A DNA stretch of 64,000 nucleotides from a virus: IMG/VR virus record IMGVR_UViG_3300032053_000016, positions 1-64,000 of that record. One strand, written 5' to 3'. Positions 161-15,625 of the stretch are shown piece after piece (the stretch's first letter is position 1; every line of letters begins with the position of its first letter). Position numbers and translations under genes: made by a program. The notes under the pieces were generated by a model. The model was not told where the DNA came from. It did not search any database and worked only from the letters and a program-made list of their open reading frames with translations.

Positions 161-367
161 TCATGCTATTTGAATCGCCGCCATGTCGAACCAGATGTCC
201 GAGATCCCACGCACGTGGCCGATCGGCTCTATCTGCTCGCCGACCGTGAGGTCGGTCTCGAGGATCAGCACGTTCCACTCGGACTGCCCGTGTCGGCTGA
301 GCAGCAGGTACACGCCTGTCTTTGGCTCTGTGCGCGCCCACACCTCACCCGCGGCTCGGGTTGTCAC
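161..367 (-). CDS. GQVW-family small protein
   Basis: GTG start overlapping upstream stop; RAAGEVW...VYLLL. Confidence 0.6.
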   Translation of the reverse strand: MTTRAAGEVWARTEPKTGVYLLLSRHGQSEWNVLILETDLTVGEQIEPIGHVRGISDIWFDMAAIQIA

Positions 368-1098
368 CTCTTGTCCTGCGTCTTTGGCTCGCACCACACC
401 GTCGCCTCCGGGGCGGGCGTGCCGTCTGTGGACATCACGGCCTTCCACGCCTCGAGCTGCGTGCGGAACGTGCCCATGCGCGCGATGTGTCGGCACCTAG
501 CGTACCAGTAGACTTCCTCGTCCATGCGCTCACCCTACCGCTTCCTGGGAGGATACGCGCTCTTGGGATCCACGTGCGGCCAACGTTCGGCCCACTCCCC
601 CTTCACGCGCGACGGGACCTGGATCGGCGCGTGGAACCCGCACGTGCACGCGCACGCGTACAGGAACCCGGCGTCGCTGCGTATCTGCTGGTGGCAGGCG
701 AGCACGTTGGCGCGTTGAGCCTTGAGCTCGGCTCGCGCTTGGGACCGACGTCGACGCTCGGCCCACGTGGCGATCCGCGTGACCCACGTCGCGCCCCACC
801 GCTTGGGGGCGGGCCGATCGGGGGTGGAGGAGGGTTCGCGGTAGGGGTGGTGGGTCACGTGGAGCTCTCGGGTGGCTGGATCACGATCACCGTCGCGCTG
901 CCGTCCTCGACGCACCGCGCGAGCGTCGCGAGCAGCGACCACTGCTCGTGGTGGCCGGCGATCTTGACGCTCGCGCGTCGGCGCTCGCGTTGCTGACGCC
1001 TGGCTTGCTTCCTACGTGTCCTGTTCTTCATGGCTTTTCGGGTGGCTTTCGGGTGGGGAGCGAACTGCGGTTCGCAGTGCGCGCATTTTTGAGAGAAT

Positions 1099-1365
1099 TT
1101 ACGGGAGAGGGGCGGCCGAAACCCGTGGAGAAGAGAACATGTAGAACTCGGCGTCGCCTGCCTCCGGACCCATCAAACGAGACTTGGAGCTGGCGACGTC
1201 CCACCGCTCCTCGCTCACCCACACACACCTCCACGTCTCCATGTCACGAGCTAGCCAAGAGGCGTTGATCAAGTTGACGTGGCGGGACTCAAGCATGACG
1301 ACGCGCCACCTCTGTCCTTCGCCGTCGTGCGTCCACCACACCTGCCCGGCCTGCGGACGCTTCAC
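1099..1365 (-). CDS. GQVW-family small protein
   Basis: VKRPQAGQVWW, GTGA overlap with upstream gene. Confidence 0.6.
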   Translation of the reverse strand: MKRPQAGQVWWTHDGEGQRWRVVMLESRHVNLINASWLARDMETWRCVWVSEERWDVASSKSRLMGPEAGDAEFYMFSSPRVSAAPLP

Positions 1366-1559
1366 TTGACACCTGTCGTGAACATCGACAGCCACACACT
1401 CGAGTACTCGCACACCTCGCCGGGCCGCTCCCAACCGTTGGCCATGTGGTGACCTTCGATCACCAGCGCGTGCCACTCTGTGTGGTCGTCTCTGGACTGC
1501 CGCACCAGCAGGTACATGCCAGGAGGGTTGACGTGCGCGCGTAGTTCGCCAGACTTCAC
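1362..1559 (-). CDS. GQVW-family small protein
   Basis: VKSGELR...MYLLVRQS...EWHALVIE; similar to 161..367. Confidence 0.55.
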   Translation of the reverse strand: MKSGELRAHVNPPGMYLLVRQSRDDHTEWHALVIEGHHMANGWERPGEVCEYSSVWLSMFTTGVK

Positions 1560-1765
1560 GCCTCCAACCGCGTCCAGTGCTTGGCGAGGTCGACGCAGAT
1601 CCCAAGTTTGCCGACGTGTGGGTCGCCGTGCCGGTCGTCGTCTTGCTGAAGGATGAGCACTTCGGAGTAGCGTCGCGTGTCTTGCCCCCCGCCGAAACCG
1701 CAGTCTCGAACGACCACCACCACGCTGCGCTCGCAGATCCATGTCGTGCCAACTGTGGCCATCAC
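1556..1765 (-). CDS. GQVW-family small protein
   Basis: MATVGTTW...WTRLEA. Confidence 0.55.
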   Translation of the reverse strand: MMATVGTTWICERSVVVVVRDCGFGGGQDTRRYSEVLILQQDDDRHGDPHVGKLGICVDLAKHWTRLEA

Positions 1766-1953
1766 TCCACAAGCTCCATCGGGTGCTCGCAGAACTCGTG
1801 CGACGGCCACGAGAACGTGTACCCGGCCAGCGCGACGCCTGTGCGACCCTCGTGCAGATACATGGCCGTGACACGCTTGGGGGTGAGTCTCACGATCACA
1901 CGCCATGTGTCCGTCATCGGGTTGCGCCACACCTGACCCAGCTTGAGCGTCAT
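1762..1953 (-). CDS. GQVW-family small protein
   Basis: MTLKLGQVWRN; ATGA overlap. Confidence 0.6.
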   Translation of the reverse strand: MTLKLGQVWRNPMTDTWRVIVRLTPKRVTAMYLHEGRTGVALAGYTFSWPSHEFCEHPMELVE

Positions 1954-2162
1954 TCTAACCTCATCCATGTCCCGTGACCTTTGTCAGGCCCACCCCAGTC
2001 ATCCATCTCGTTCGCGTTCACGAATTCACCTGTCTCAACCCTGAGAACTGTGTGACGTGTGTGTTCGCGCGATTGTGCGGATCGCACGACTATGTGAATC
2101 CCGTTCCAACCTACAAGGTCGATCCCTTCCCACACTTGGCCGACGCGGTCGACGAACTTCAT
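1950..2162 (-). CDS. GQVW-family small protein
   Basis: DRVGQVWE...WMRLE. Confidence 0.65.
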   Translation of the reverse strand: MKFVDRVGQVWEGIDLVGWNGIHIVVRSAQSREHTRHTVLRVETGEFVNANEMDDWGGPDKGHGTWMRLE

Positions 2163-2644
2163 GTTTTCTCCTCAAAAGGCCACCACGCAGGTGCCGAGGC
2201 TCGTGGTGCCCAACGGGCGAACCGAGCCTTATCGCCGATGTAATAACGACGATATGCCTCAACAATGTCCAGATCTGCTGTCTGCGTCTTCCAAGGCTCT
2301 TTGATAGCTCGAGCGAATAACGTCAAACCTACGTCAGACAGATCAGGCGTTGTGTTAACACACTGCTCGATGATTTCCTGCGTGACGTGAACACGGTTGT
2401 AGCGACGTGTATACTCCTCACACAAGGCAAAAGCGTGGACAGCAAGCCACTTGTAGTTTGACAACGAGGAACGTACCCACTTGCTACAAGGGTGGTTGAA
2501 GTGTGTGTGCTTGTAACGGGTCGTATCAGGAGGCAACGCCGTGATCAACAGCTGTGCTGACTCGAGCACCATCTTGACCACATGTTTGTTGCATTGCTGT
2601 TGAGCGGCAGTAACAGGGTCAACGTCAAGAACAAAGACGTTCAT
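2159..2644 (-). CDS. Pyrimidine-dimer DNA glycosylase (T4 endonuclease V-like) family protein
   Basis: MNVFVLD..P..AA....KHVVKM.LE.AQLL, YK.TH.NHPC..W and AYR.YY..DK motifs. Confidence 0.8.
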   Translation of the reverse strand: MNVFVLDVDPVTAAQQQCNKHVVKMVLESAQLLITALPPDTTRYKHTHFNHPCSKWVRSSLSNYKWLAVHAFALCEEYTRRYNRVHVTQEIIEQCVNTTPDLSDVGLTLFARAIKEPWKTQTADLDIVEAYRRYYIGDKARFARWAPRASAPAWWPFEEKT

Positions 2645-2862
2645 CAGCCCAGCCTCTCACCGCGAATGTCGTCCATGTTCTCGCTCCAACGGTTCGGCGT
2701 GGCGTGAAAGATCTTGCCGGTCGCCAAGCACAGGCAGCGCCACAGTGATTCTTTTGAACACGTTGGCGTCCACAGCTCAAGCAGCACGCTCGGCTGCATC
2801 TCCTCGAAGTCAGGAGTGGCAAGCATCCACACCTGCCCGACCGCTGGCTCGTCGATCCTCAT
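2644..2862 (-). CDS. GQVW-family small protein
   Basis: PAVGQVW...PSVLLE...WRCLCL..G.IF....NRW; clear paralog of 4396..4626. Confidence 0.65.
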   Translation of the reverse strand: MRIDEPAVGQVWMLATPDFEEMQPSVLLELWTPTCSKESLWRCLCLATGKIFHATPNRWSENMDDIRGERLG

Positions 2863-3065
2863 GCCACCCTCACCATCCATTGTTTGAGAAACTCTCGCAT
2901 GTGGATCGTGTACGTCTTGCCCGCGAGCTCACGTGGACGTAAACCGTCTTTAAGAAACCCATCGTCAAGGAACATCGCTGTCACGAACCCAAGCTCGTCA
3001 GGATCTGTGATGATCAAGCGCAAGACGCCTGACTCGGTGTGAGTGTACACTTGGTTGGCTCTCAC
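2859..3065 (-). CDS. Small protein, divergent GQVW-like
   Basis: VRANQVY...WMVRVA; coupled to neighbours. Confidence 0.5.
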   Translation of the reverse strand: MRANQVYTHTESGVLRLIITDPDELGFVTAMFLDDGFLKDGLRPRELAGKTYTIHMREFLKQWMVRVA

Positions 3066-3289
3066 CACTGCTTTCGATTGCTCATCGATGTCCACGGCAC
3101 GTCTTTCTTCTCATAGACGTGTGTTAAGTCCCAACCTGCATCATCCCCTGGTTCTAAGCAGACGACAGGATGTCGCCAAAGCGCATCATCATCAGTTGGT
3201 GAATTGATTGGTTTCCCGATGATGAGAAACAGCCTGTTGTAAATGGTCCACACTTCGCCGGTTCTGTCAGGAGGAGGAGGAGACGTCAC
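3062..3289 (-). CDS. GQVW-family small protein
   Basis: PDRTGEVW...LIIGKP...HPVVCLEPG. Confidence 0.6.
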   Translation of the reverse strand: MTSPPPPDRTGEVWTIYNRLFLIIGKPINSPTDDDALWRHPVVCLEPGDDAGWDLTHVYEKKDVPWTSMSNRKQW

Positions 3290-3555
3290 GTTGACGCTCG
3301 AAACAGCGCGAACGGCGAGTTGTTATCGATGTTTGTCCACCCTCGAAACGTTATCTCTGTAAGAGGAGGATCACCTACTTCCGCGCTGATCAGCATGCAT
3401 CGCACTTCATCGTCGTGGCTCAAGACATCGTCGAGAAGGACAAACAAGTAATCAGGCTTCTCCACAGCGAACGCGTCGCCCGCCCTGAGCCTGAGTGACC
3501 AGAACGTCGCGACGTGATCGCGCGTCCAACCTTCTCTAAGGGCGACCGTCGGCAT
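3286..3555 (-). CDS. Small hypothetical protein (GQVW-like)
   Basis: LRAGDAF...YLFVLL; in coupled array. Confidence 0.5.
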   Translation of the reverse strand: MPTVALREGWTRDHVATFWSLRLRAGDAFAVEKPDYLFVLLDDVLSHDDEVRCMLISAEVGDPPLTEITFRGWTNIDNNSPFALFRAST

Positions 3556-3718
3556 CGCACAGTTCCAACTGAAGCTTCTTCACCTCGGTTCGCGCATCTT
3601 GTAGGTCGAGCGCGAGCCGCACGATGGCGAGCGCGGAGACCGGGCCGGCCGACCCGGCGCGACACCCGTCGTTCTCGATCAGCTCTTCTAGGATCTCGTC
3701 GGCGACTCGTTTCCTCAT
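3536..3718 (-). CDS. Hypothetical protein
   Basis: ATG 6 nt downstream of a TAAGGT -10-like box. Confidence 0.5.
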   Translation of the reverse strand: MRKRVADEILEELIENDGCRAGSAGPVSALAIVRLALDLQDARTEVKKLQLELCDADGRP

Positions 3719-3759: not shown

Positions 3760-3981
3760 TCACGCGATCAGCTTAGACTGGCTGTGCCACAGCGCGTCCT
3801 CGCTGAACACCACAACGTCTCCTGACTTGTAGTACAAGTTGTCTTCTACGTTGAGGATCAACGACTCCATCTTGCGTCTCCCCTTGCGAGCCTTGCCCAC
3901 CCACCGCAGTGTCACGAAGATCGTGGGAACAACCGACCACCCTTGCCACTCGCGTGTTTGCCCAGGTGCAAGAGGAGTCAC
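3760..3981 (-). CDS. GQVW-family small protein
   Basis: LAPGQTREW; GTGA overlap. Confidence 0.55.
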   Translation of the reverse strand: MTPLAPGQTREWQGWSVVPTIFVTLRWVGKARKGRRKMESLILNVEDNLYYKSGDVVVFSEDALWHSQSKLIA

Positions 3982-4178
3982 AGCTTGCTGAACCCTCGGT
4001 TGTTGCAGTCGACGATGCAAACGTGACCTTCTAAGTCGGGCCTGAACGTTGACACGTGGATCAGGGCTTTAGCCTCGTTGTGCGCGCCTGGCTCCTCAAG
4101 GTACGTGAGCAGAACGTGACCCGAAGACTTGTTGCTCGTCTCCCACGTCGTCCCTGTCAACGGCTCACGCTTGCTCAC
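3978..4178 (-). CDS. GQVW-family small protein
   Basis: PLTGTTWE. Confidence 0.55.
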   Translation of the reverse strand: MSKREPLTGTTWETSNKSSGHVLLTYLEEPGAHNEAKALIHVSTFRPDLEGHVCIVDCNNRGFSKL

Positions 4179-4399
4179 GTGATCCTCACCCAGTTGGTGG
4201 GGTTGGGACGGTTATTTTCACTTGACGTCAACACGTCCTCTTTAGCGGTGTCGATCTGCATTCCTAGACGACCAGCCGCGTCATCGACGCGATAGATGAT
4301 GAACGTGTTGTGTATTCTGTCAAGCATGTTGTGCCAGCCTGTGATCACCTCGATCGAGCCGCCGATCTCCCACACTTGGCCGATCCTAGGGTTGATCAC
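4175..4399 (-). CDS. GQVW-family small protein
   Basis: PRIGQVWE...WVRIT. Confidence 0.65.
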   Translation of the reverse strand: MINPRIGQVWEIGGSIEVITGWHNMLDRIHNTFIIYRVDDAAGRLGMQIDTAKEDVLTSSENNRPNPTNWVRIT

Positions 4400-4626
4400 G
4401 CTAGCCTCACTCCAACAAGATGATCAGCTAAGTCATCAGGAAATCGTTCCACGTCCCGCCAACGGTTCAGTGAAGCGTTGAAGATCGACCCGTCTATCAA
4501 ACACAAACACACCCAGTAACGCTCTCCATTTGATGACACGCGACTCTCAAGCAACAGCGCTGGCTCAAGACGATGCTCGTGACTCGTTAGTTGCCACACT
4601 TGGCCGGTTTCCAGCTCACACAACAC
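4396..4626 (-). CDS. GQVW-family small protein
   Basis: LETGQVW...PALLLE...WVCLCL..G.IF....NRW...VRLA. Confidence 0.65.
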   Translation of the reverse strand: MLCELETGQVWQLTSHEHRLEPALLLESRVSSNGERYWVCLCLIDGSIFNASLNRWRDVERFPDDLADHLVGVRLA

Positions 4627-4828
4627 GGTTGCACCGCTGAAACATCCAAGCTTCGTCGATCGACGTCGTGATGCTGAAATCTTGTGATTGAGAGTCAAGG
4701 ATCAGTGCGTCCCACCACGGGTATGTTTCGTTGTGACGTTCAAGTAACACAAATATGAAATTATATCTTCGGTGTGTGCCCGAGAAAAGGAACACGTCGC
4801 CAGGCATCAAGTACCATTCGCCGCTCAT
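4616..4828 (-). CDS. GQVW-family small protein
   Basis: LMPGDVF...FIFVLLE...WDALIL. Confidence 0.55.
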   Translation of the reverse strand: MSGEWYLMPGDVFLFSGTHRRYNFIFVLLERHNETYPWWDALILDSQSQDFSITTSIDEAWMFQRCNRVV

Positions 4829-5049
4829 GCCGTCCCCAGCACGATGAGCTCAGAGTGGGTGAACAACGGCTCGTTTAAACGGTAATTTTTGTGTACGCCG
4901 ACGTGAGCACCTGCTGTCAACTTCTCGACGTAGAGGAACAGCACGGTCGCGTGGAACTGTGTGCACTTTAAGACAACGTAGATGATGTGCCCGCATTCGT
5001 CGTGAACCCCGTCGCCGTACTCACGTACTTCACCGACGTCGAACCTCAC
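4825..5049 (-). CDS. GQVW-family small protein
   Basis: FDVGEVR...IIYVVL. Confidence 0.55.
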   Translation of the reverse strand: MRFDVGEVREYGDGVHDECGHIIYVVLKCTQFHATVLFLYVEKLTAGAHVGVHKNYRLNEPLFTHSELIVLGTA

Positions 5050-5273
5050 ACGAGCACCGTTGTTTCTTCCACAAGCCACGAGTTGAAAGCGTCGACGATC
5101 TTCCCGGCCGGAGGGATGTACGCCTCCTGCATGCCTGTCACCTCCAATGTGAGCACAGACCACCCGACGCCGACAGATGCCAATACGAGATAGACGCTGT
5201 CGCCGGTGGCACCCACATGGATGCGAGTCTGCCCTGGTTCCACGGGCACTTGATCACGCGGCTGGATCATCAC
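5046..5273 (-). CDS. GQVW-family small protein
   Basis: VEPGQTR...VYLVL. Confidence 0.55.
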   Translation of the reverse strand: MMIQPRDQVPVEPGQTRIHVGATGDSVYLVLASVGVGWSVLTLEVTGMQEAYIPPAGKIVDAFNSWLVEETTVLV

Positions 5274-5617
5274 GCTGGCTCGATCCATTTCTTGCTGGTG
5301 CAGAGGTGAGGTGCATGTGTGAAGCGATCGTCTCTCCCATCAAGCGGGACGATGAGCACCGCGTCAAGGTGGCCGCCAGCTTCGTGCTTCTTGAGCTCAC
5401 GCACCACGAGCAGTAGCTCACCAGCTGGGATGCGTTCGCCCCACCTGAAATGCTCAAGCGTCCACGTGACTGTCGCGCTCCCTCCACCCATCCTCGGTGC
5501 TGCCGCGATCGCCTTGTAGATGCTCGGTCCGGCGTACCGCTCCGCACGCAGGCGATCGCAGAGGCAGCAACCACACGGTTGATCGTGCTCTCGACGCGTG
5601 CTGTTGATCGGGCTCAC
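5270..5617 (-). CDS. Hypothetical protein with N-terminal CxCCxC motif
   Basis: ORF in co-directional array; HDQPCGCCLC. Confidence 0.5.
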   Translation of the reverse strand: MSPINSTRREHDQPCGCCLCDRLRAERYAGPSIYKAIAAAPRMGGGSATVTWTLEHFRWGERIPAGELLLVVRELKKHEAGGHLDAVLIVPLDGRDDRFTHAPHLCTSKKWIEPA

Positions 5618-5626
5618 GAATCCACT

Positions 5627-5896
5627 TTACCACACCCTTCTCTGACAGTCGCTCTCGGTAAGCGCGGTCGACTCCATGAACCAGATGGCGTGCTCGTCGT
5701 GCTCAAGGATCTCGCCAGCCTTGTACGGAGCGTACGTTGAGTGAAGAACGAACGAACGTCCTATCCGTCCAGTGGCGCTGGGACCTGAGCTTCCGCTGTG
5801 TTCTACGACGAGGTATATCGACTCTTCGTTACCTGATGAGTACACGCGTATCGCACCTGTGAAGCAGGTGCCCTGGGGTGGGATGTTGAAGCTCAC
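5627..5896 (-). CDS. GQVW-like small protein
   Basis: PQGTCF...IYLVV...FVLHST (shared with 6102..6311). Confidence 0.55.
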   Translation of the reverse strand: MSFNIPPQGTCFTGAIRVYSSGNEESIYLVVEHSGSSGPSATGRIGRSFVLHSTYAPYKAGEILEHDEHAIWFMESTALTESDCQRRVW

Positions 5897-6105
5897 TCGA
5901 CCTTCTCCCACCCGAGCTTCGGAAGGTTGAAGACTGTCTCCACATCGCCTGTCAACAGGTCAAGCGAGACCCAGTCGTTGTACTCTGGGTTGTGTGTGTT
6001 TGGCCCGATCATCTCGATCAGGAGGACAGGGTACCACTCGACTGCGTCTGTCTCGCTTGACCACGTGCACCACTCCCACACGTCGCCACGCTCGACGACC
6101 CTCAC
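5893..6105 (-). CDS. GQVW-family small protein
   Basis: VERGDVWEW...LDLLTG. Confidence 0.6.
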   Translation of the reverse strand: MRVVERGDVWEWCTWSSETDAVEWYPVLLIEMIGPNTHNPEYNDWVSLDLLTGDVETVFNLPKLGWEKVE

Positions 6106-6311
6106 GTGATCCTCTTGTAATGCATCAGCAAGCTGACCGACCTTGGGTGGTAGAGCTCACCCGGAAGGATGAACACGTTTGTCGAGTGGAGGACGAAGCA
6201 CGTCGCCTCGTCGTGATGCGCGATAACGTCATCACGGTCCACGACAAGGAGCAACACACTGGCATCCCCTTCCCACACTGAACCGATCGACACGATGGGC
6301 ATGTTGTTCAA
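6102..6311 (-). CDS. GQVW-family small protein
   Basis: SIGSVWE...LLLVV...KRIT. Confidence 0.6.
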   Translation of the reverse strand: MNNMPIVSIGSVWEGDASVLLLVVDRDDVIAHHDEATCFVLHSTNVFILPGELYHPRSVSLLMHYKRIT

Positions 6312-6320: not shown

Positions 6321-7544
6321 TCATCCCTTGACGCACAAAACTTGCTTAAGAACGTGTACGATCTCCACCAGCTCGGCTTGGGCTGCCATCACCGCGTCAA
6401 TGCTCTTGTAAGCGCCTGGAGTCTCGTCGACCACGCTCGCGTCCTTGCGACACTCGACACCTTTGGTGGCTTCAACGTGATCCTCAACCGTGAACGTTTT
6501 CTTCGCCTCCGTGCGTGACATGCGACGGCCGGCGCCGTGCGAGCAGGAACACAGGCTGTCGCGGTTGCCCTTGCCTCGCACGATGAACGACTTGGCGCCC
6601 ATCGATCCTGGGATGATGCCGAGCTCGCCAAGCTGAGCGGAGACCGCTCCCTTACGTGTGACCCACAGCTTGCGACCGAAGTGCCTCTCGCTTGAGATGT
6701 AGTTGTGGTGGCAGTTGACAGCCTCCACCTCGGCGTTCGCGTTCCAAGTCACGCCGAGCTCCTTGACGACGGCGTCGAGCGTGGCGTCCATCATGACCTC
6801 GCGGTTCAAGCGAGCGAAGTCCTGGCCAAACCTGACAGCCTGGATGTACGCCGTGTAGTGTTGACTGCCCTCCGGAAGGTACGAGAGATCCTTGTCGGGC
6901 AAGTTGATGTGCCAACGTTCCATCTCCTTCTTCGCAAGCGCGATGAAGTGCGAACCGACACGGTTGCCGACCCCGCGTGAGCCGGAGTGAAGCATCAGCC
7001 ACACGTTCTGATCCTCGTCGCCGCACACCTCGATGAAGTGGTTCCCTGACCCGAGCGTGCCGAGGTGGCCGATGGTCGTTCCTCGGTCGAGGCCGGGGTA
7101 AAGTGCAACAAGCTTCTTGTACTCCGCGTCGAGCGTAGACCAACGGTCGCGAACGTTCTGCGGCACGTCTCCCCATGCGCCACGGTCGTTGCGACCGCCT
7201 TGATCTGTGCGTCCGTGCGGGACAGCCTTCTCGATGACGGAGCGTAGGCTCGCGAGGCTGTCTGGAAGCTGTGACAGCTTGAGGTCAAGCTTGCGCGCCA
7301 TCATTCCACAGCCGATGTCCACACCCACGGCCGCGGGGATGATCACCCGATCTGTGGGGATGACGCTGCCGACCGTCGCGCCGAAGCCTTTGTGCACGTC
7401 CGGCATGACTGCGAGGTGCGGCCACACGAACGGCAACGTGGCGACGTTGACGAGCTGCTCCTCAGCCGGCTCCTCAAGCTCAACGCCGTCGACCCACGCC
7501 TTGATGGGCACGCGTTGCCCCTCTCTCCCTGTGATGACCTTCAT
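6321..7544 (-). CDS. rtcB: RtcB RNA 3'-phosphate/5'-OH ligase
   Basis: MPDVH.G.G..VG, VGVDIGCGM, GTLGSGNHFIE, HSGSRG, HHNY, PGSMG, SHGAGR and DE.P.AYK motifs. Confidence 0.97.
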   Translation of the reverse strand: MKVITGREGQRVPIKAWVDGVELEEPAEEQLVNVATLPFVWPHLAVMPDVHKGFGATVGSVIPTDRVIIPAAVGVDIGCGMMARKLDLKLSQLPDSLASLRSVIEKAVPHGRTDQGGRNDRGAWGDVPQNVRDRWSTLDAEYKKLVALYPGLDRGTTIGHLGTLGSGNHFIEVCGDEDQNVWLMLHSGSRGVGNRVGSHFIALAKKEMERWHINLPDKDLSYLPEGSQHYTAYIQAVRFGQDFARLNREVMMDATLDAVVKELGVTWNANAEVEAVNCHHNYISSERHFGRKLWVTRKGAVSAQLGELGIIPGSMGAKSFIVRGKGNRDSLCSCSHGAGRRMSRTEAKKTFTVEDHVEATKGVECRKDASVVDETPGAYKSIDAVMAAQAELVEIVHVLKQVLCVKG

Positions 7545-7562: not shown

Positions 7563-7775
7563 TCATCGCAAAATGCATGCTCTCGGCAGGTACACGGCGT
7601 CGTCATATAACTCTCCAGACTCCTGCTCGACGGCAAGCATGCCGTCGTCAAGGTACATGACGTCGACGTACAGGTAGCCTGATATCGAGCTGAACGGTTC
7701 GGAGAGCACGACGAAGCTGTCTGCGTTGCCCATCGGGTAGAGCACGACGTCACCAAGTTTGAGACCCACGTTCAC
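7563..7775 (-). CDS. GQVW-like small protein
   Basis: LKLGDVVLY. Confidence 0.5.
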   Translation of the reverse strand: MNVGLKLGDVVLYPMGNADSFVVLSEPFSSISGYLYVDVMYLDDGMLAVEQESGELYDDAVYLPRACILR

Positions 7776-7779: not shown

Positions 7780-7986
7780 CTAGATGGCGACCGTTTGGGT
7801 CGTAAGCCAATCCTCACTCCACCACGTCGTGGATCCGACTACAAACATGTTGCTATACCACTTTGTGGAGTGAATGACGATGGCCTCCCAGCCAGTGTTC
7901 TCACGATCGTGACCGACCACAAGGATGAACATCTCACCGTTGCCAGAGCTCGCTGCGGCTCGCACCTGCCCGATCTCAGGCTTCAC
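7780..7986 (-). CDS. GQVW-family small protein
   Basis: PEIGQVR...FILVV...WEAIVIHST. Confidence 0.55.
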   Translation of the reverse strand: MKPEIGQVRAAASSGNGEMFILVVGHDRENTGWEAIVIHSTKWYSNMFVVGSTTWWSEDWLTTQTVAI

Positions 7987-8186
7987 AGCCTCTCCCAGCG
8001 TTCAACATCGTGCAGCTCCATCCACGGCATGTTGCCAGTGTGAAACACGAACATGTGTGCTATTGGAAACGGGTTCTGCCCTATGATGACACCGATGAAG
8101 AGCCAGTAGACTGGTGGATCGTCTGGGTTGTCAGATTTGTGCGATGGGAACACGACGACGTCTCCAGGCTTCAACGGCGGGTTCAC
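7983..8186 (-). CDS. GQVW-like small protein
   Basis: LKPGDVV...WERL. Confidence 0.5.
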   Translation of the reverse strand: MNPPLKPGDVVVFPSHKSDNPDDPPVYWLFIGVIIGQNPFPIAHMFVFHTGNMPWMELHDVERWERL

Positions 8187-8401
8187 ACCAACCTCTTGAT
8201 GTTCTTGGTCTCGCACGATCCGTCGTTTACAAATAACTCTTCAAGACACGGGAAGAGCAGCGTTGAGAACGGGCGATCGTCGGCGACGAGGTACACGATT
8301 TGATGCACCCACCCCCATTCACCGATTCTAGACTCCATCACAAGTGCGATGTAGCCCGGGGTGAATTCCCACACCTGTCCAACACGGTTCACAGTCAGCA
8401 T
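8183..8401 (-). CDS. GQVW-family small protein
   Basis: NRVGQVWE...KRLV. Confidence 0.65.
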   Translation of the reverse strand: MLTVNRVGQVWEFTPGYIALVMESRIGEWGWVHQIVYLVADDRPFSTLLFPCLEELFVNDGSCETKNIKRLV

Positions 8402-8480
8402 GATGACGTGGTTCACACACGACGATGACTCTCGATACACGAGAGTTCTGTGTTGGCGTTTACCCATGTACATTCATGAC

Positions 8481-8750
8481 ATGCACGCTTCCGTTCCTGA
8501 TCGACGTGGTGAAACCTGGGAGGAGAAACCACGCCCAGAACACCAGTGGGTGCCGGGACACGACGAACGGGTCGAACGTTTCGTTGTCGTCGGTGAGCCG
8601 ACGCTCGTTGAAGGCCATGATCCGTCTAGAGTGGCGTCATGGTGTCACCAGGTGCTCTGGATGGATGACATCCCATCGCTTCCAGGCGACGGCGAAGACA
8701 AGATCAACGAGAACTACTTCACCAACGGCATGTACGTGAGGCTCGCGTGA
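8481..8750 (+). CDS. GQVW-family small protein
   Basis: PDRRGETWE...VVVGEP...YVRLA; TACATT 6 nt upstream of ATG. Confidence 0.65.
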   Translation: MHASVPDRRGETWEEKPRPEHQWVPGHDERVERFVVVGEPTLVEGHDPSRVASWCHQVLWMDDIPSLPGDGEDKINENYFTNGMYVRLA

Positions 8751-8965
8751 CCGGTAAGGCTGGCGAGGTGTGGATCCTAGGCGACGGAAGTGACCCTAGT
8801 CTCGACGGCAGCGAGTGGTGGTACGTGCTGATCGAGCTGTGTGAAGGTTACCAAAACAAACATGTGTGGTGGGCGATGCGGCTGAACGACATCTCGGCTG
8901 ATCGACCGGCAGGCACGCTCGGGAGACTCACGGTTGGATACAAGCATTGTCGGAGGTTCGTTTGA
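8747..8965 (+). CDS. GQVW-family small protein
   Basis: KAGEVW...YVLIE. Confidence 0.6.
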   Translation: MTGKAGEVWILGDGSDPSLDGSEWWYVLIELCEGYQNKHVWWAMRLNDISADRPAGTLGRLTVGYKHCRRFV

Positions 8966-9192
8966 ACACGCGTGTCGGTGAGGTGTGGGAGATCAAAAGC
9001 TTCTTGAACGGGGAGCGTGTGGTCGTCGTCATGGAGTCGAAGCTGACTAGCCTTCGTCACGATGCCGGGTTCGCCATGCTGCACAAGATCTTGCAGATCA
9101 CGGGTAAGAAGGAGGGGCGTCTGCTCGTGTGGACGGAGTACCCAACCACTTTGTGGGAAGAGGCAGACAACATGAAACGTCTGGACGCTTGA
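8962..9192 (+). CDS. GQVW-family small protein
   Basis: TRVGEVWE...MKRLDA. Confidence 0.65.
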   Translation: MNTRVGEVWEIKSFLNGERVVVVMESKLTSLRHDAGFAMLHKILQITGKKEGRLLVWTEYPTTLWEEADNMKRLDA

Positions 9193-9193: not shown

Positions 9194-9481
9194 ATGAGGA
9201 ATTACATGTTCGTGCAACCTGTCACGCCGCATCCAAACGACCAGCAGATCCGCCAGTCAAAGGATCGCACGTTTCAGGTTTGGGAGGTTTACGCAGAAGG
9301 CCTGATCCAGTTCGTGACCGGCGCGCCAGAGGTCACGATGTACGCGCCAAACGGCGAACCGTTTCAGTTCTCTCACCCTTGCTACTGCATCGACGACTGC
9401 GGCGAACGACACGAGTGGCCTCTTATTGAGACCGTTGATCGCCCTCTAGAGGTGAAGGAAATTTACAAGAGGTTAGCTTGA
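9194..9481 (+). CDS. GQVW-family small protein
   Basis: DRTFQVWE...HPCYC...YKRLA. Confidence 0.6.
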   Translation: MRNYMFVQPVTPHPNDQQIRQSKDRTFQVWEVYAEGLIQFVTGAPEVTMYAPNGEPFQFSHPCYCIDDCGERHEWPLIETVDRPLEVKEIYKRLA

Positions 9482-9738
9482 AACACACACGCGCCGGTGA
9501 GATGTGGTTCGAGTGGGACGGCTTTGACAACACCCAGTGGCACGAGGTGTTGATCTTGGAGACAAAGCGTGTCGCCTTCGATCAGCAGTGGCACATGTGC
9601 ATCAACCTCGTGACTGGCGAGGTTTACCAGACGGTCGAGATGATGAACGCGCTGTGGGAGGACACGCCGACGGAACGCGTAATCGACACGAACCCTTGCC
9701 GTTTCAACGCCACGCTTCATCGCAAGAGGATCTTGTGA
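9478..9738 (+). CDS. GQVW-family small protein
   Basis: TRAGEMW...CINLVTG...KRIL. Confidence 0.6.
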   Translation: MKHTRAGEMWFEWDGFDNTQWHEVLILETKRVAFDQQWHMCINLVTGEVYQTVEMMNALWEDTPTERVIDTNPCRFNATLHRKRIL

Positions 9739-10055
9739 GAAGGAATTTCATACTCACACCAGGGATCGCTTGGTTGCGTCGTTTGGCAAAAGTGACCTGT
9801 CGCAAGGGTCAAGTTTGGACTCGCCCCGACCTCACGGTGTTGATCGTTGTTGGAGAGCCTGAGCCATCTGACGAGTGGGATCGTCACGGTCGATTCATTG
9901 AGCACGTCTCGAATGTGCTCAAAACTCTCAGCCAACACGGTTGGTGTCATCCGACTCTTTGCCTTGAGACAGGAGAACGTTGTCACGTCAACGAGCGGTT
10001 CTTCGTTGAGGGCGAGCAAAAATTGATCACCAACACTTGGACGAGGATCGCATGA
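9735..10055 (+). CDS. GQVW-family small protein
   Basis: RKGQVW...IVVGEP...HPTLCLETG...WTRIA. Confidence 0.6.
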   Translation: MRRNFILTPGIAWLRRLAKVTCRKGQVWTRPDLTVLIVVGEPEPSDEWDRHGRFIEHVSNVLKTLSQHGWCHPTLCLETGERCHVNERFFVEGEQKLITNTWTRIA

Positions 10056-10261
10056 AACAAAAATCCAAGTATGATCGCGTTGGGCAGGTGTGGTGGAGTG
10101 GCAAGCTGATCGTTCTCGTGACCGAGACTGTCATGTCGAAAGATCGACGCAGCATGCTTCACATTTGTTACTTGCTTGAGGGAGGCGGATTCATACACCT
10201 TCACGAGAAGAAGGTGAAGCGTTGGGAATGGACTCCAGCGTGGCAAGAGCGAATCACGTAG
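10052..10261 (+). CDS. GQVW-family small protein
   Basis: DRVGQVWW...WQERIT. Confidence 0.65.
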   Translation: MKQKSKYDRVGQVWWSGKLIVLVTETVMSKDRRSMLHICYLLEGGGFIHLHEKKVKRWEWTPAWQERIT

Positions 10262-10298: not shown

Positions 10299-11381
10299 AT
10301 GTCAGAATTTCACGTGAACGTGGTCCGTCTCACGAACGTCCAGAAGCACCCCAACGCTGACTCGCTGTACATCGCGAAGATCCATGGTGGTTACCCGATC
10401 ATCTTCAAGGGAAAGGAGTTCGGAGGAGCCTTCGAGGAGGGCGATCTCGCCGTCTACATCCCTGTTGACAGCATGGTGCCCGCGACGAAGGAGTACGCTT
10501 GGCTGTCCCCGCAGGTGGAGATCCTTCTGCCTGGCGGAGAGAAGCAGATGGTCGACGCGGACGTCCCACGCGACAAGGATCGACGCGTGCGTGCCAAGCG
10601 ACTGCGTGGAGTCTTCTCGATGGGCATGCTCGGCGTCGCGCCGGAAGGCGCTGTTGAAGGCCAGGACGTGGCCGAGCTCATGGGCATCACCAAGTACGAG
10701 GAGGCCGAGGATGTCATCAACGCTTCGCGCACCGACGGGTTTCAGGTGCCGGCGCCGCGTCTCAAGGCGATGCCGAGCGTCTACGACATCGAAGGCCTGC
10801 GTCGCTACACCAGCGCCTTCAAGGTTGGCGAGGAGTACGTTGTCACCGAGAAGCTTCACGGCCAGAACGCGCGCTTCGTCCACGACGGCGAGAGACTTCA
10901 CGTCGGCTCACGCACGCGCTGGCTGACCACCGCGGAGCGTCACACGTGGGCAGACGCGGCAACGCGTTACGTGCTCGCCGAGAAACTCAAGCAAGCGCCG
11001 GGCATCGTCTTCTTCGGCGAGACCTACGGCAACAACACCGACATGTCGTACGGCGTGACGCGTGCCAAGACCGGCGACGAGGTCCGCTTCTTCGACGCGT
11101 GGAACTCGGAAGACGGGTCGTTCTTTGATCATGACGTCTTCCTCAACATGTGCAAGTCGTTAGACCTACAGGTCGTCCCCGAGCTGGCGCGTGGCACGTG
11201 GGCAGAAGGTGAGTTCGAGAAGCTTGCGCCGCTTGCAGAAGGCAAGACGACTCTCGGAGGCGGACACGTGCGCGAGGGTTTCGTCATCAAGCCGTTGAAG
11301 GAACGTTTCTGTGAGGAGATCGGCGGGCGGCTAATATTGAAACTACATGGAGCGGATTTCCTCCTTCGAAAAGAAAAGTAA
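10299..11381 (+). CDS. ATP-dependent RNA ligase, DRB0094/Rnl5 family
   Basis: N-terminal OB-type HPNADSL and LRGVFSMG; nucleotidyltransferase motifs I (TEKLHG), III (FFGE), IV (EGFVIKP) and V (ILK). Confidence 0.9.
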   Translation: MSEFHVNVVRLTNVQKHPNADSLYIAKIHGGYPIIFKGKEFGGAFEEGDLAVYIPVDSMVPATKEYAWLSPQVEILLPGGEKQMVDADVPRDKDRRVRAKRLRGVFSMGMLGVAPEGAVEGQDVAELMGITKYEEAEDVINASRTDGFQVPAPRLKAMPSVYDIEGLRRYTSAFKVGEEYVVTEKLHGQNARFVHDGERLHVGSRTRWLTTAERHTWADAATRYVLAEKLKQAPGIVFFGETYGNNTDMSYGVTRAKTGDEVRFFDAWNSEDGSFFDHDVFLNMCKSLDLQVVPELARGTWAEGEFEKLAPLAEGKTTLGGGHVREGFVIKPLKERFCEEIGGRLILKLHGADFLLRKEK

Positions 11382-11404: not shown

Positions 11405-11647
11405 GTGAAGCAAGGGTGGAAGCCACGTGTCTTCGAAACTGGCTGCGTGTACCGCACGGTGCTGAACGCGTACTCAACGACCGACAGTCGTGAATGCATC
11501 TACCTCGTGTTAGGGGCTGACGAACGTGACGCTAACTGGTGGGAAGGGTACGCTGTGAACTTCACGTACCTTGACCTCCTCACAGGGCACGTCGACGAGT
11601 TCCATCGCGATTCTTACTTCGCGTGCTCGGCTGAGCCGTTGTGGTGA
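11405..11647 (+). CDS. GQVW-like small protein
   Basis: FETGCVY...IYLVL...LDLLTG. Confidence 0.55.
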   Translation: MKQGWKPRVFETGCVYRTVLNAYSTTDSRECIYLVLGADERDANWWEGYAVNFTYLDLLTGHVDEFHRDSYFACSAEPLW

Positions 11648-11886
11648 AGTACCTCTACCACCTCCCGTGTGGGACGGTGATCCACCAACTTGAGGATGAC
11701 GACGCAGACATCTCGTGCGATTTCACCGCGCGTCGAGGTGACCTTGCCGTTGTGATCGCTCACACAGTCAACGGGTGGTGCGAGACAGTGTTCCTATCCT
11801 TGACGCAAGGAGAGATCTACCATGTGTGTTACGGTTACGAGAGCAACTACGCTGCGATGTGTTCGGTCGAGGTGTACAAACCGTGA
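11641..11886 (+). CDS. Hypothetical protein
   Basis: ORF coupled to previous gene. Confidence 0.5.
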   Translation: MVKYLYHLPCGTVIHQLEDDDADISCDFTARRGDLAVVIAHTVNGWCETVFLSLTQGEIYHVCYGYESNYAAMCSVEVYKP

Positions 11887-12521: not shown

Positions 12522-12541
12522 CCGACCACGTTACCACTCTT

Positions 12542-13466: not shown

Positions 13467-14236
13467 TCATCCTCCGTCGCGAGCAGACTCTCAACGTACT
13501 CACGCTTCTCGCCGAACATCGGGATGTCGGTGTCGACCTTCCACCCTTGACGTTCGCCAGAGAGCGGGCAGTAGTTCTTCTTGACGCAGCGACCTTTACG
13601 GATCGTTGGCGTCAGATTCTCCCAGGGTTGACCGGCGTCACGGCACATGTCCTTCATCGTCGAGACGTTCTTACCCTCGCACTGCTTGTGTGAGAAGAGC
13701 GAACGCGCGTGCATCTGAACGCTGTTGCGCACGGCGTCTTGCTGGCGCCAAATGAAGTAATTCGTGACTTCACCCTCGGGGATGATGAACGCGCGAGCGT
13801 CGAAGTAGGCCGGCTCGATGTCCTCGACGCCGACGTGCGCCCGCTCGTCACCTGTTTTAAACAGACGCCACGACTTGGCGGTGAACGTTGACGAAGCAAT
13901 GGCGGCTGCGACTGACACGATCTTCTGCAGCTGATTATCGTACCACGGCTGCGTGTCGAACGTTTTGTAACTGTGAACGAGGACGGACACCTCATCAGAC
14001 TGAGAGTAGGCAAGCTCCGCACCCTGGATGTTATGACACAGCGCCATTGCGACGCCCTCCATGATGGAGATGAAGTCTCGATTGAACGGCTTGTCAGGCA
14101 GGTGTTTCGTGTACTTGCTGAAAGCCTTTCCATCCACGCGGATGATGAGTGGCATGCGGCGCGGGAACTCGGCCCGCGCGGCCTCTTCGTATCGCTTCAT
14201 CCGTGATGCCAACGAGCTGCGTTCATGGTCTGACAT
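13463..14236 (-). CDS. thg1: tRNA(His) guanylyltransferase, Thg1-like
   Basis: RMKRYE, IIRVDGKAF, YSQSDEVS, FDAR and WRQQDA.RNS motifs; start reassigned to the Met at 14236. Confidence 0.93.
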   Translation of the reverse strand: MSDHERSSLASRMKRYEEAARAEFPRRMPLIIRVDGKAFSKYTKHLPDKPFNRDFISIMEGVAMALCHNIQGAELAYSQSDEVSVLVHSYKTFDTQPWYDNQLQKIVSVAAAIASSTFTAKSWRLFKTGDERAHVGVEDIEPAYFDARAFIIPEGEVTNYFIWRQQDAVRNSVQMHARSLFSHKQCEGKNVSTMKDMCRDAGQPWENLTPTIRKGRCVKKNYCPLSGERQGWKVDTDIPMFGEKREYVESLLATEDE

Positions 14237-14879
14237 GGCTTCCCCAATTCTCGTGTGCTTGTTTGTGACACGTTCGACAGAGCGTGATCCCATTTCGAAG
14301 TTCGACATCCACAATGTCTGGATGCGCGATGACGAACTCAAGCTTCTCTTCTTCATCACGAAAAGTGAGACCGTTCACGATCCGCTTGATGATCTTGACC
14401 ACTGATTCGATGTGATGTGCGTCGAGCTTTTCGCGCGAAGGACATTTCTGACATGTCGATTTGTCACGCTCGAACACTCGAGCGTACCATCCGACACGCG
14501 TTGACAACAGACGTTTGACACGCTTCGTGAACGAAGCCTTCCCGCCTTTCCAAGCGGTTGCATTACAGCCAGTCTTACCAACTCGAGCCGACGACATCAA
14601 GCGCTTGGTTTCGGTTGTGTGCTTGCGGCCGTACATCCCGTTCTTCTCGTCGTTGATGTCGAGCTTTTTTCGTGACTCCTTGTGAGCTTCTGATGCTCGC
14701 ATCTTTTCGCTCAAAACAGCGCGTCGAATGGGGTCGGCCCACATCGTTTTGTACCTTTCGGAGGTGCACGCGCGACAACGGTAGAACCCGTTTCTCTTCA
14801 CTGTTTTGCTGTAGGAGTCGCTCCATATGACATTCACGGTTTCGCAGAAAGAACACTTGGCTTCAAGTTTTGAGCGCAT
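14223..14879 (-). CDS. HNH homing endonuclease with NUMOD3-like motif
   Basis: GMYGRKHT.ETK..MS; CQKC...LDAHHI...NGITLC..CH. Confidence 0.85.
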   Translation of the reverse strand: MRSKLEAKCSFCETVNVIWSDSYSKTVKRNGFYRCRACTSERYKTMWADPIRRAVLSEKMRASEAHKESRKKLDINDEKNGMYGRKHTTETKRLMSSARVGKTGCNATAWKGGKASFTKRVKRLLSTRVGWYARVFERDKSTCQKCPSREKLDAHHIESVVKIIKRIVNGLTFRDEEEKLEFVIAHPDIVDVELRNGITLCRTCHKQAHENWGSHVRP

Positions 14880-14906
14880 GTCTTACATAGGACATGTCAG
14901 TCCGAA

Positions 14907-15158
14907 TCAATTGTCTTGTGTCCTCACGTCACATTCGCCATCTGCAGCGTCGTACAAATCCCAAGTACAAAGGTCGTCCAGTGCAACGACGGGCCCACCA
15001 TCCTGAACAGCAGGCTCAGAGTAAGGCGGTGTACCTTCCGAAATGACGATGACGACGCGTGCGGAATCGTCGTGATACGCTGACGAGTTCGTCCCGATTT
15101 CATCGGACAACGAACCGCACGCGACAAGCATGAGCGAAACCAACACGAAAAGTTTCAT
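14907..15158 (-). CDS. Putative lipoprotein
   Basis: MKLFVLVSLMLVAC lipobox. Confidence 0.55.
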   Translation of the reverse strand: MKLFVLVSLMLVACGSLSDEIGTNSSAYHDDSARVVIVISEGTPPYSEPAVQDGGPVVALDDLCTWDLYDAADGECDVRTQDN

Positions 15159-15197
15159 TCGCTCACCGTAGCCGACGCGAGCCCGGAACAGAGCTCT

Positions 15198-15440
15198 TCA
15201 GGCGATCCTTCTGCCAACCCACGCGTCATCCCAGCCGGCCTCGACCCTGGCGAACTGCGTCTCGAATTGCTCAAACTCCCAAGCCGGGTCAGCGAGGCGT
15301 TCGAGCGGACGTAGCACCCATCACACGGGGCCTTGACGCTGCGCCGACCCCCAATCTTTTCGCCCGAGAACGACGCATGGCTCGAAGTCGGCGATGATGC
15401 TTCTGCGTCTCGCCCACCACACTTGACCGACGCGACTCAC
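15198..15440 (-). pseudogene. GQVW-family gene with one internal TGA
   Basis: MSRVGQVWW...QGPV*WVLRPLE...WVGRRIA*; in-frame TGA at 15321-15323; not in the ORF track. Confidence 0.65.
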
Positions 15441-15625
15441 GTCAATCTCACATGAAGCGGATTTGCGAACCAACTTCTCGGAACGTGAGTGACAACACCT
15501 TGCTTGTTTGAACCGAACAAGATCAACAATTTGTTGATTTTGCCTACCTCAAGCACGAGGTAGATCCACGCGTGTGGATCATCGTGGTCTATTTTCTCTT
15601 CCCACACCGAGCCGACAGACGTCAT
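15437..15625 (-). CDS. GQVW-family small protein
   Basis: SVGSVWE...IYLVL...VRLT. Confidence 0.6.
   Translation of the reverse strand: MTSVGSVWEEKIDHDDPHAWIYLVLEVGKINKLLILFGSNKQGVVTHVPRSWFANPLHVRLT

Follow-up and report, generated by a model that had tools for sequence, protein, structure and literature searches.

Within 16 kb of its genome an uncultured giant T4-like phage encodes a single tiny protein, predicted to be an SH3/Tudor-like barrel, in some 35 copies that have diverged deeply and that together constitute a lineage-specific multigene family in the accessory region of this jumbo phage. The family is real, uncatalogued and fast-changing between related phages. Our best guess as to its function, to which we give a probability of about 0.45, is that the small proteins of the array would be expressed together as a repertoire of protein-binding modules serving host takeover or counter-defence. 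The window, as we term the whole stretch of 64,000 nucleotides analysed here, lies on a contig that amounts to ~29% of the genome according to CheckV, so that the genome would measure roughly 370 kb.

Family membership

An earlier note on this DNA had described a tandem expansion of about 35 divergent 'GQVW' genes, and both the motif and the layout of these genes match that description. Profile comparison establishes that 22 loci, each significant by itself, belong to one family (20 within 161-15625, together with 20226 and 49034, the two proposed outliers, which under the combined HMM are genuine); these loci, the core members and the interrupted copy of Table 1, outscore all reversed-sequence decoys with the window-only, external-only and combined HMMs alike. 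A further 12-14 small genes of the chain are twilight members, bringing the total near 35. The 12 so labelled in Table 1 score above at least 99.4% of ~810 decoys on leave-one-out (empirical p <= 0.006), those at 7563 and 5270 being weaker; as a group the twilight genes outscore control small genes (Mann-Whitney p 9e-6), and an hhalign comparison with the core, covering strands 1-2, gave a probability of 71% and E 3.6e-5. Statistical support for the twilight copies is at group level, not copy by copy.

The family is visible only with profiles, because pairwise phmmer searches joined a sole pair, 2644/4396. An iterated HMM from 12 seeds recovered 16 ORFs at E<1e-3, the top reversed decoy standing at E 1.6, while leave-one-out E-values ranged from 2.5e-6 to 0.34, the top-scoring non-members always being other candidates of the earlier note, and an HMM built from external metagenome homologues alone ranked 20 ORFs of the genome above the first decoy. 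The pairwise searches join one pair only, and spurious long ORFs are numerous in the GC-rich region between 1 and 2 kb, which might suggest that a short motif recurs by chance in small ORFs without relationship, or that the pattern consists of off-frame artefacts. However, the leave-one-out and external-only HMMs part members from all reversed decoys, coding potential tracks the gene chain, and the external homologues have the entire architecture in common with the window members; we regard chance as extremely improbable, and for the 22 core loci it is rejected by the HMM scores against reversed decoys.

Three of the subfamilies perceived earlier, namely 2644/4396, 161/1362 and the three 'HST' genes 5627/6102/7780, can be recognised in the translations. 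The gene previously noted at 1362 is a twilight member, and a separate secure member adjoins it at 1099-1365.

Table 1. Family members and context genes, with the evidence for each (decoy counts are from leave-one-out scoring)
Feature	Position	Strand	Evidence and remarks
Core member, 68 aa, AAGEVW	161..367	-	Combined HMM E 8.5e-7; refined start; overlaps the upstream ORF 364-525 by GTGA
Core member, 88 aa, QAGQVWW	1099..1365	-	HMM domain E 0.0037 to 2.7e-4; GTGA start
Twilight member, 161-like	1362..1559	-	Score 9.4; 0/817 decoys as high
Core member, 63 aa, KLGQVW	1762..1953	-	HMM E 4.6e-8; same start as database protein P0004
Core member, 70 aa, DRVGQVWE	1950..2162	-	Leave-one-out E 6e-6; external-only HMM E 3.7e-10
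Core member, CLCL subfamily with 4396	2644..2862	-	phmmer against 4396 E 2e-11; HMM E 1.2e-11
Twilight member, RANQVY ... VRVA	2859..3065	-	3/815 decoys as high
Core member, DRTGEVW	3062..3289	-	HMM E 9e-17; external orthologue P0019
Twilight member, RAGDAF	3286..3555	-	1/803 decoys as high
Twilight member, LTGTTW	3978..4178	-	3/804 decoys as high
Core member, PRIGQVWE	4175..4399	-	HMM E 1e-5 to 1e-3
Core member, CLCL subfamily	4396..4626	-	Leave-one-out E 2.5e-6 with 2644 left out too
Twilight member, MPGDVF	4616..4828	-	1/800 decoys as high
Twilight member, DVGEVR	4825..5049	-	0/809 decoys as high
Twilight member	5046..5288	-	0/813 decoys as high
Doubtful member	5270..5491	-	38/819 decoys as high
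Twilight member, 'HST' trio	5627..5896	-	0/804 decoys as high
Core member, ERGDVWEW	5893..6105	-	HMM E 1.6e-8; strain variant P0005
Core member, SIGSVWE, 'HST' trio	6102..6311	-	HMM E 6.5e-4
RtcB RNA ligase, non-family context gene	6321..7544	-	Pfam PF01139 E 2.7e-123
Doubtful member, KLGDVV	7563..7769	-	15/804 decoys as high
Twilight member, EIGQVR, 'HST' trio	7780..7986	-	Score 12.9; 0/814 decoys as high
Twilight member, KPGDVVVF ... WERL	7983..8186	-	5/805 decoys as high
Core member, NRVGQVWE, first gene of minus-strand chain	8183..8401	-	HMM E 2.9e-7; L145 orthologue 46% identity, E 7e-17
Intergenic region of 79 nt separating the two divergent chains	8402..8480	.	Sequence read
Core member, DRRGETWE	8481..8750	+	HMM E 3.4e-11; L145 orthologue 46/90
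Core member, KAGEVW	8747..8965	+	HMM E 6e-4; without L145 orthologue
Core member, TRVGEVWE	8962..9192	+	HMM E 1.4e-16; L145 orthologue 41/76
Core member, DRTFQVWE	9194..9481	+	HMM E 8e-9; L145 orthologue 45/94
Core member, RAGEMW, modelled protein	9478..9738	+	AF2 pLDDT 81, 5 strands; five external orthologues
Core member, 106 aa, N-terminal extension and long loop	9735..10055	+	HMM E 1.6e-14; orthologues P0011, P0015, P0018
Core member, DRVGQVWW, final gene of plus-strand chain	10052..10261	+	HMM E 3e-16; orthologue P0009
RNA ligase, context gene	10299..11381	+	Pfam PF09414 and PF21189
Twilight member	11405..11647	+	Score 11.5; 0/814 decoys as high
Twilight member, RRGDLAVV	11641..11886	+	Score 11.1; 0/818 decoys as high
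Family member, interrupted, probable pseudogene	15198..15440	-	HMM E 1e-3 on N-terminal part
Core member, SVGSVWEE	15437..15625	-	HMM E 1.2e-5
Solitary core member	20226..20414	-	HMM E 1.2e-7
Solitary core member, HDRTGESWE ... RRRLA	49034..49294	-	HMM E 5.6e-9; orthologue at 9406-9648 of the related phage G001

Chain layout and translational coupling

The genes are arranged in two divergent chains starting at 8401|8481, with at least 20 junctions in the form of NTGA start/stop overlaps of 4 nt, in agreement with the overlaps previously reported on both sides of a divergence point. The conserved C-terminal Arg is coded AGG or AGA at 21/22 coupled junctions against 3/9 at uncoupled junctions (Fisher p 7e-4); over the whole genome AGR accounts for 16.6% of Arg codons, and the excess at coupled junctions has a binomial p of 7e-16. 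This preference, set against the genomic ~17%, indicates that the codon doubles as the ribosome-binding site of the next gene, giving a GAGG Shine-Dalgarno 7-9 nt ahead of its start, such that every gene bears the expression signal of its neighbour and the chain, judged from its sequence, is built for translation as one coupled unit. Solitary or chain-final copies retain the Arg, but coded CGN, which implies that the residue is constrained at the protein level and the codon at the RNA level.

No sigma-70-like site above shuffles was found in the intergenic region between the two chains, nor was a T4-late-like promoter signal or a recognisable promoter class detected, and since no promoter signal was found, to call the array 'early genes' would be only an analogy with the hyperplastic regions of T4.

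Predicted fold and comparison with known systems

The AF2 model of the protein encoded at 9478-9738 (pTM 0.72) has its five strands at residues 9-14, 21-33, 36-43, 49-55 and 80-84 and no helix, the C-terminal Arg-hydrophobic-Ala/Thr motif forming the last strand at the very C-terminus. SH3-like barrels fill nearly all the top rows of VIA-align (EF-P domain I, Tudor, chromo, CarD, UvrD-Tudor; Z 5-6.4), the best with an rmsd of 1.6-2.9 over 53-64 residues (1.6 over 55), although all lie at Z<8, a range in which, according to the tool, a match may mean no more than a common arrangement. On such matches the model would fall within the SH3-like small beta-barrel class (five antiparallel strands, ~60 residues). 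An Atlas structure search retrieved CarD_TRCF_RID clusters at TM 0.67-0.69, and its rows naming KOW, Tudor-type, CarD_TRCF_RID, DUF1653 and DUF6354, which score <0.9, are leads only. For 4616-4828, modelled from a twilight-only alignment, strands 1-3 reach pLDDT 72-81 and the rest is low. The family is predicted to consist of single-domain SH3/Tudor-like barrels of 60-106 aa, and the SH3/KOW-like small barrel suggested earlier is thus upheld at the level of prediction. Likewise, the supposed combination of a conserved scaffold with variable loops is seen in the alignment, where 38-49 of 50 sequences retain the seven anchors G, W, H, L, G, W and R, and the linkers between anchors vary (16-48, 6-27 and 8-38 residues); any old small family would be expected to vary in loop length in this way, which is by itself no sign of diversifying selection.

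The best structural matches, EF-P/eIF5A domain I (KOW-like), Tudor, chromo, CarD/TRCF-RID and UvrD/PcrA Tudor, are all small binding modules for proteins or nucleic acids, but the residues conserved in the family do not correspond to the KOW motif or the aromatic cage of Tudor domains. Comparison of 39 members with KOW (PF00467), Tudor-type, PF02559, DUF1653 (PF07866) and DUF6354 (PF19881) gave none at E<=1, and PF19881 had 0 matches over the whole contig. In one narrower form of the binder idea most copies would share one target, as Tudor-like modulators binding RNA polymerase in the manner of CarD, TRCF-RID and the UvrD/PcrA C-terminal type. CarD, UvrD-Tudor and PcrA-Tudor are indeed among the structural matches (Z 4.5-5.3), as are the CarD_TRCF_RID clusters from the Atlas; yet these Z values are within generic small-barrel similarity, PF02559 is without a sequence match and thirty-five copies for one target are hard to explain, so that we hold this version to be very unlikely.

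MazF/PemK/CcdB toxins have an SH3-like barrel with an N-terminal RGD-I/V-W/Y strand. The likeness of the family to them is confined to this first strand, and the assignment was rejected, there being no Pfam match (PF02452, PF01845) and the proteins being too short for a domain of ~110 aa. Hfq/Sm proteins, which are marked by an N-terminal helix, Sm1/Sm2 motifs and an RNA-binding surface of basic character, were similarly dismissed on a model that has no helix, no Pfam LSM/Hfq match and a median pI of 5.4. Three T4 proteins (GoF and MotB.1, plus Frd.2) resemble the family in being small phage proteins of a T4-type accessory region, with a predicted bent five-strand antiparallel SH3/LSm-type sheet and barely any sequence similarity to each other. 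However, the T4 proteins, at 119-141 aa, have an extra C-terminal domain after a linker and are encoded by three dispersed genes, whereas the window family comprises ~35 tandem, translationally coupled copies of a single domain with a signature of its own, G-x-V-W ... H ... G ... W ... R-h-A. With hhalign probabilities for profile A4 of 0.2% against MotB.1 and 0.1% against GoF, and no two-domain build, membership of the T4 LSm-like family was also rejected.

Turnover, neighbouring genes and possible function

The family is without a match in Pfam, PHROGs, NCBIfam, PDB sequences and INPHARED phages (for PHROGs, ten members gave nothing below E 0.05 and nothing to a named family), its sole outside relatives being ~20 metagenomic clusters. 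A syntenic metagenome relative, L145, carries 12 members within 4.9 kb and shares with the window six orthologues, intact and in the same order at 33-54% identity; seven of its copies have no counterpart in the window (six in the plus-strand chain, one upstream of the 8183 orthologue), and it is without five window copies (8747 and 10052 of the plus-strand chain; 7983, 7780 and 7563 on the RtcB side). In the copy at 15198-15440 an in-frame TGA occupies 15321-15323, where members often have Trp, and the read-through translation retains GQVW, the strand WVLRPLE and, at its end, RRIA. Paralogues that are old and diverged, a single copy interrupted by a nonsense codon, and whole-gene gain and loss between relatives amount to birth-and-death evolution under purifying selection.

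The same turnover and the nonsense codon could be taken to mean that the array is largely dispensable filler, that is, selfish or nearly neutral small ORFs without per-copy function, which would have spread through recombination where they share the motif and the junction; the only DNA repeats, microhomologies of 16-22 nt at the GQVW motif and the AGG..NTGA junction, could promote such illegitimate recombination. We consider this distinctly unlikely, as the six orthologue pairs diverge far more at third codon positions than at the first and second (identity at positions 1/2/3 of 0.61/0.67/0.41) and remain intact and in order at their low identity, every ORF except one is open, and the seven anchors are conserved across ~50 sequences.

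As the earlier note observed, family genes are interleaved with RNA-repair genes; the neighbouring enzymes are RtcB, RNA ligase, Thg1-like and AlkB-like. A functional link is weakened by two results: L145 retains RtcB residues 1-27 and 380-407 only, ~28-379 having been deleted, and has kept its array, while no family member is present in the flanking regions of RtcB at 80 other phage loci. The barrel proteins therefore appear to be independent of the neighbouring enzymes. The same results count against the suggestion that the proteins are LSm/Hfq-like RNA-binding factors acting with these four enzymes on tRNA or mRNA, for which the interleaving, the predicted LSm-like five-strand small barrel and a BFVD match to T4 MotB.1 (P39415; prob 0.92, TMq 0.46) would speak, along with the finding that the T4 early LSm-like GoF(D25Y) stabilises an mRNA (PMC12152347). 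We judge this unlikely, in that the model has no N-terminal helix, hhalign gives <1% against GoF and MotB.1, and the listed proteins are mostly acidic (24/36, with 3/36 basic, one of these a mis-framed control). A protein partner is likelier than RNA because of this acidity.

In the preferred reading, that of a repertoire of protein-binding modules, the fixed barrel core with its anchors would present the length-variable loops, and each paralogue would bind a different host or phage macromolecule.

The listed proteins are also Trp-rich (4.1%), and the related phage G001 carries further clusters at 116.5 and 120.7-122.1 kb.

Size and limits of the GQVW family

Pairwise comparison by phmmer joins only two of the small genes between 161 and 15625, 2644 and 4396 (E 2e-11; ORFs are named by their start coordinate in the window), so that the proposal of the earlier note, that about 35 divergent copies of one 'GQVW' miniprotein are arrayed here, rests on profiles. 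Starting from 12 obvious seeds, an iterated HMM settled on 16 ORFs (E < 1e-3), the top reversed-sequence decoy standing at E 1.6, and on leave-one-out the omitted members scored between E 2.5e-6 and 0.34, the top non-members always being other candidates of the earlier note and never decoys. Likewise, a model built solely from outside sequences ranked 20 ORFs of the genome above the first decoy. The combined HMM retrieved 22 loci, 20 of them within 161-15625 and the others the solitary genes 20226 and 49034, which had been put forward as outliers and are indeed members. Under each of these models the core members separate from reversed decoys.

The remaining twilight genes of the same chains, taken one by one, lie at noise level under the core model. 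As a group, they have a median of 3.5 bits versus -0.8 for 31 small control genes from other parts of the genome (Mann-Whitney p 9e-6), and they also score above reversed sequences (p 2.5e-6). When each was left out in turn from a model that included the remaining twilight genes, seven (1362, 4825, 5046, 5627, 7780, 11405 and 11641) ranked above all of about 810 decoys and five (2859, 3286, 3978, 4616 and 7983) above at least 99.4% of them; 7563 and 5270 were weaker, and ORF 3773-3949 scored at noise level. By hhalign the twilight alignment matches the core alignment over strands 1-2 (probability 71%, E 3.6e-5). With 22 secure and 12-14 probable members on these HMM and decoy tests, 'about 35' is a fair count; the start positions of 1362, 4396, 5270 and 49034 are uncertain. 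The array is not made up of this family alone, since the 60-aa ORF at 3536-3718 (minus strand), which lies within the chain and has a helical-looking sequence and good coding potential, does not fit the GQVW pattern.

A search of 1.84 billion representative proteins with the window profile (HMMER) gave 28 matches at E ≤ 1e-3. Of the 21 that were retrieved, about 19 are genuine small outside homologues from metagenomes, 59-115 aa long apart from a 140-aa two-domain form, and they share the build M-x-D-R-x-G-Q-V-W, a hydrophobic strand, H-x-x-L-x-L-x-x-G, W-E and a terminal R-h-A. Two long matches, P0010 and P0016, proved on reading to be repeat or Ig artefacts; P0012 is a third long match. Other searches returned little: a word-indexed protein search found near-identical strain variants only; scans with sets of 10 and 39 members against Pfam, PHROGs and NCBIfam matched no model beyond scattered single chance matches; a PDB sequence profile search gave no match; and DUF6354, suggested by the Atlas, was absent. 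Similarly, no match was obtained with the family alignment A3 against IMG/VR, with two outside homologues against 50,697 phage records (tblastn), or in three more distant jumbo relatives (G002-G004, E ≤ 0.01), and in IMG/VR a degenerate DNA pattern encoding D-R-x-G-Q-V-W-E recovered only chance sites and the known related phage G001. Judged by these searches, the family is rare outside this phage lineage.

Gene junctions and turnover between relatives

The chaining of genes by 4-nt overlaps holds at no fewer than 20 junctions, all NTGA, where the typical last codons are [A/G]AG-AGG-hTn-nCN-TGA, that is K/V/E-R-(I/L)-(A/T)-stop. The conserved Arg is encoded by AGG or AGA in 21 of 22 junctions where an NTGA overlap contains the start of the following gene (window and L145, a syntenic metagenome relative), as against 3 of 9 copies lacking a coupled downstream gene (Fisher p 7e-4), and AGR accounts for only 16.6% of Arg codons genome-wide (binomial p 7e-16). 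CGN codons occur in the solitary 20226 and 49034, in the chain-final 10052 and in 8962. At the protein level, then, the Arg is retained in coupled and uncoupled copies alike, and it lies in strand 5 of the AF2 model; the codon itself, from this distribution, is chosen to supply a GAGG ribosome-binding site 7-9 nt upstream of the following start. This second use of the codon accounts for part of the 'R(L/I)(A/T)' ending that the earlier note described. As read from its junctions, each chain shows a build for coupled translation. No enrichment of sigma-70 promoters or terminators was found, and the T4-late-like promoter signal TATAAATA is absent.

Repeats at the DNA level are confined to stretches of 16-22 nt, located at the GQVW motif and the junction; with long repeats lacking, the paralogues are old and recent duplications absent. 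In copy 15198-15440 an in-frame TGA stands at a position often occupied by Trp in other members. Read through, this copy keeps every family feature including an RRIA end; it is probably a recent pseudogene.

One question then is how the array changes between related phages. L145 (JGI metagenome contig Ga0163153_10023713, 4.9 kb) shows synteny with window 7.5-10.1 kb and contains 12 members of the family. Six are orthologues in conserved order, with 33-54% identity by global alignment; seven L145 members, one of them upstream of the 8183 orthologue, are without counterpart in the window, and window genes 8747, 10052, 7983, 7780 and 7563 are missing from L145. Over the six pairs, identity at codon positions 1, 2 and 3 is 0.61, 0.67 and 0.41, the pattern left by purifying selection on proteins. 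Together with the conserved anchor residues described below, it weakens the reading of the array as neutral filler. In L145 the neighbouring RtcB gene (185-381, minus strand) is cut by an internal deletion of about 350 codons to residues 1-27 and 380-407 (the first 27 and last 28), 85-86% identical to those of the window, and the array is intact all the same.

The collinear IMG/VR relative G001 (132.5 kb) begins at window position ~41 kb, which places the array outside its coverage. It carries the 49034 orthologue and, past the end of the window's contig, six tandem members of the form M-x-P-[YF]-x-[AS]-[PS]-x-G-T-V-W (G001:C1:120732-122058, plus strand) as well as further copies near 116 kb, among them 116479-116667 (plus strand). 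The family is thus spread over several clusters in this lineage.

Predicted fold and possible function

The earlier note suggested small SH3/KOW-like barrels. At the level of prediction this agrees with the AF2 model of 9478-9738, which, from an 18-row window alignment, has five strands and no helix (pLDDT 81, pTM 0.72). In a VIA-align comparison over 48,161 chains, the top matches were EF-P domain I and Tudor, chromo, Spindlin, CarD and UvrD/PcrA Tudor domains (Z 5-6.4; best match rmsd 1.6 over 55 residues), and an Atlas structure search gave CarD_TRCF_RID clusters (TM 0.67-0.69), values that fall in the tool's 'generic' range. Foldseek found no match at E ≤ 1e-3 in PDB or BFVD, the BFVD matches being uncharacterised phage proteins only, T4 MotB.1 among them. 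An SH3-like barrel is well indicated as a fold class by these models, with no specific relative indicated. From the twilight alignment alone, AF2 reproduced strands 1-3 (pLDDT 72-81) but not the C-terminal part.

The notion of a conserved scaffold with variable loops is borne out by a 50-sequence alignment, in which seven anchors are kept (G 46, W 49, H 40, L 38, G 39, W 42 and C-terminal R 43) and the spacers vary in length (W-H 16-48, H-G 6-27 and G-R 8-38 residues). Members are Trp-rich (4.1%) and acidic, with a median pI of 5.4 and 24 of the 36 listed below pI 6.

The reading we favour, at a probability of about 0.45, is that these would be small modules, expressed together, that bind proteins in the service of host takeover or counter-defence, action on RNA polymerase being included as a special case. 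It is favoured because of the binding-module fold, the fixed core with variable loops, the fast gain and loss between relatives coupled with purifying selection on retained copies, the acidic chemistry and the location in an accessory region. Alternatively, the members could be LSm-like RNA chaperones, a role proposed for T4 GoF (PMC12152347), but three observations weaken this reading: the members are acidic, L145 has lost RtcB, and the flanks of 80 IMG/VR phage RtcB loci contain no member. The T4 LSm-like family (GoF/MotB.1/Frd.2) has in common with the GQVW family its fold class, genome type and lack of phenotype; hhalign against GoF and MotB.1 shows no sequence relation, and the T4 proteins have two domains and are encoded by dispersed genes, unlike GQVW members. 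By sequence the family is new, and the array is unusually large and well defined; the specific additions are the dual-use junction, the pseudogene and the direct comparison between relatives.

A bolder extension of the protein-binding reading, which we consider rather unlikely as a whole, is that large uncultured phages maintain fast-turnover repertoires of tiny SH3-like binders built from self-contained expression cassettes, the array being a viral counterpart to bacterial defence diversity. The Arg codon of the last strand would double as the next gene's Shine-Dalgarno sequence which, with the NTGA overlap, would allow whole genes to be gained, lost or swapped with co-translation unbroken, and every copy would have its own host factor to neutralise or hijack.

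Small orphan genes account for a large share of large-phage genomes and, to our knowledge, hardly any of them has been explained. In the present case a single orphan family takes up about half of a 16-kb stretch; its fold prediction is clear, its conserved core and cassette junction are defined, and a natural comparison with a relative reveals kept and replaced copies. The ~35 short, synthesisable genes offer a concrete test set for pooled defence-system screens or pull-downs, and the junction a simple testable case of one sequence serving as both protein strand and ribosome-binding site.

Genomic setting of the array

The contig, of which the window is the first 64 kb, measures 107,401 bp with 55% G+C, and its CheckV completeness of 29% points to a jumbo phage with a genome of about 370 kb. 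A gp6-like baseplate wedge is present, its cultured-phage relatives being only ~29% identical, and the contig has no close relative in INPHARED. Within 1-16 kb Pfam identifies five enzymes, and the rest is almost wholly short, tightly chained ORFs with coding potential on the minus strand to 8401 and on the plus strand from 8481. In IMG/VR, queries with the RNA ligase and Thg1 turned up no close relative.

Enzymes identified within 1-16 kb of the window
Feature	Position	Strand	Source
DenV-like pyrimidine-dimer glycosylase	2159-2644	minus	Pfam
RtcB	6321-7544	minus	Pfam
RNA ligase	10299-11381	plus	Pfam
AlkB-like 2OG-Fe(II) oxygenase	11904-12521	minus	Pfam
Thg1-like enzyme	13463-14359	minus	Pfam

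Positions 1-2000 have 65% G+C, versus ~55% in the rest of the contig, and many long spurious ORFs in all frames, and nonetheless contain family members 161, 1099, 1362 and 1762. As the contig begins within the array, further copies may exist upstream of its start.

A tRNA with a 4-base anticodon 'aata' and without assignable isotype is called by ARAGORN at 53175-53253 (minus strand). A second, weak paralogue pair, not GQVW-related, is formed by 12542-12907 (minus) and 22067-22342 (plus; phmmer E 1.8e-4). A 126-aa Cys-rich protein without Pfam match is encoded at 13086-13466 (minus; CCPSHCCDQHGC...C..C); a 4-nt overlap couples its gene to the Thg1-like one, and it may act as a zinc-binding partner. 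Directly downstream of the interrupted family member, an 83-aa ORF (14907-15158, minus) opens with MKLFVLVSLMLVACGS, a lipoprotein signal peptide with lipobox Cys, and could be a lipoprotein of the superinfection-exclusion type.
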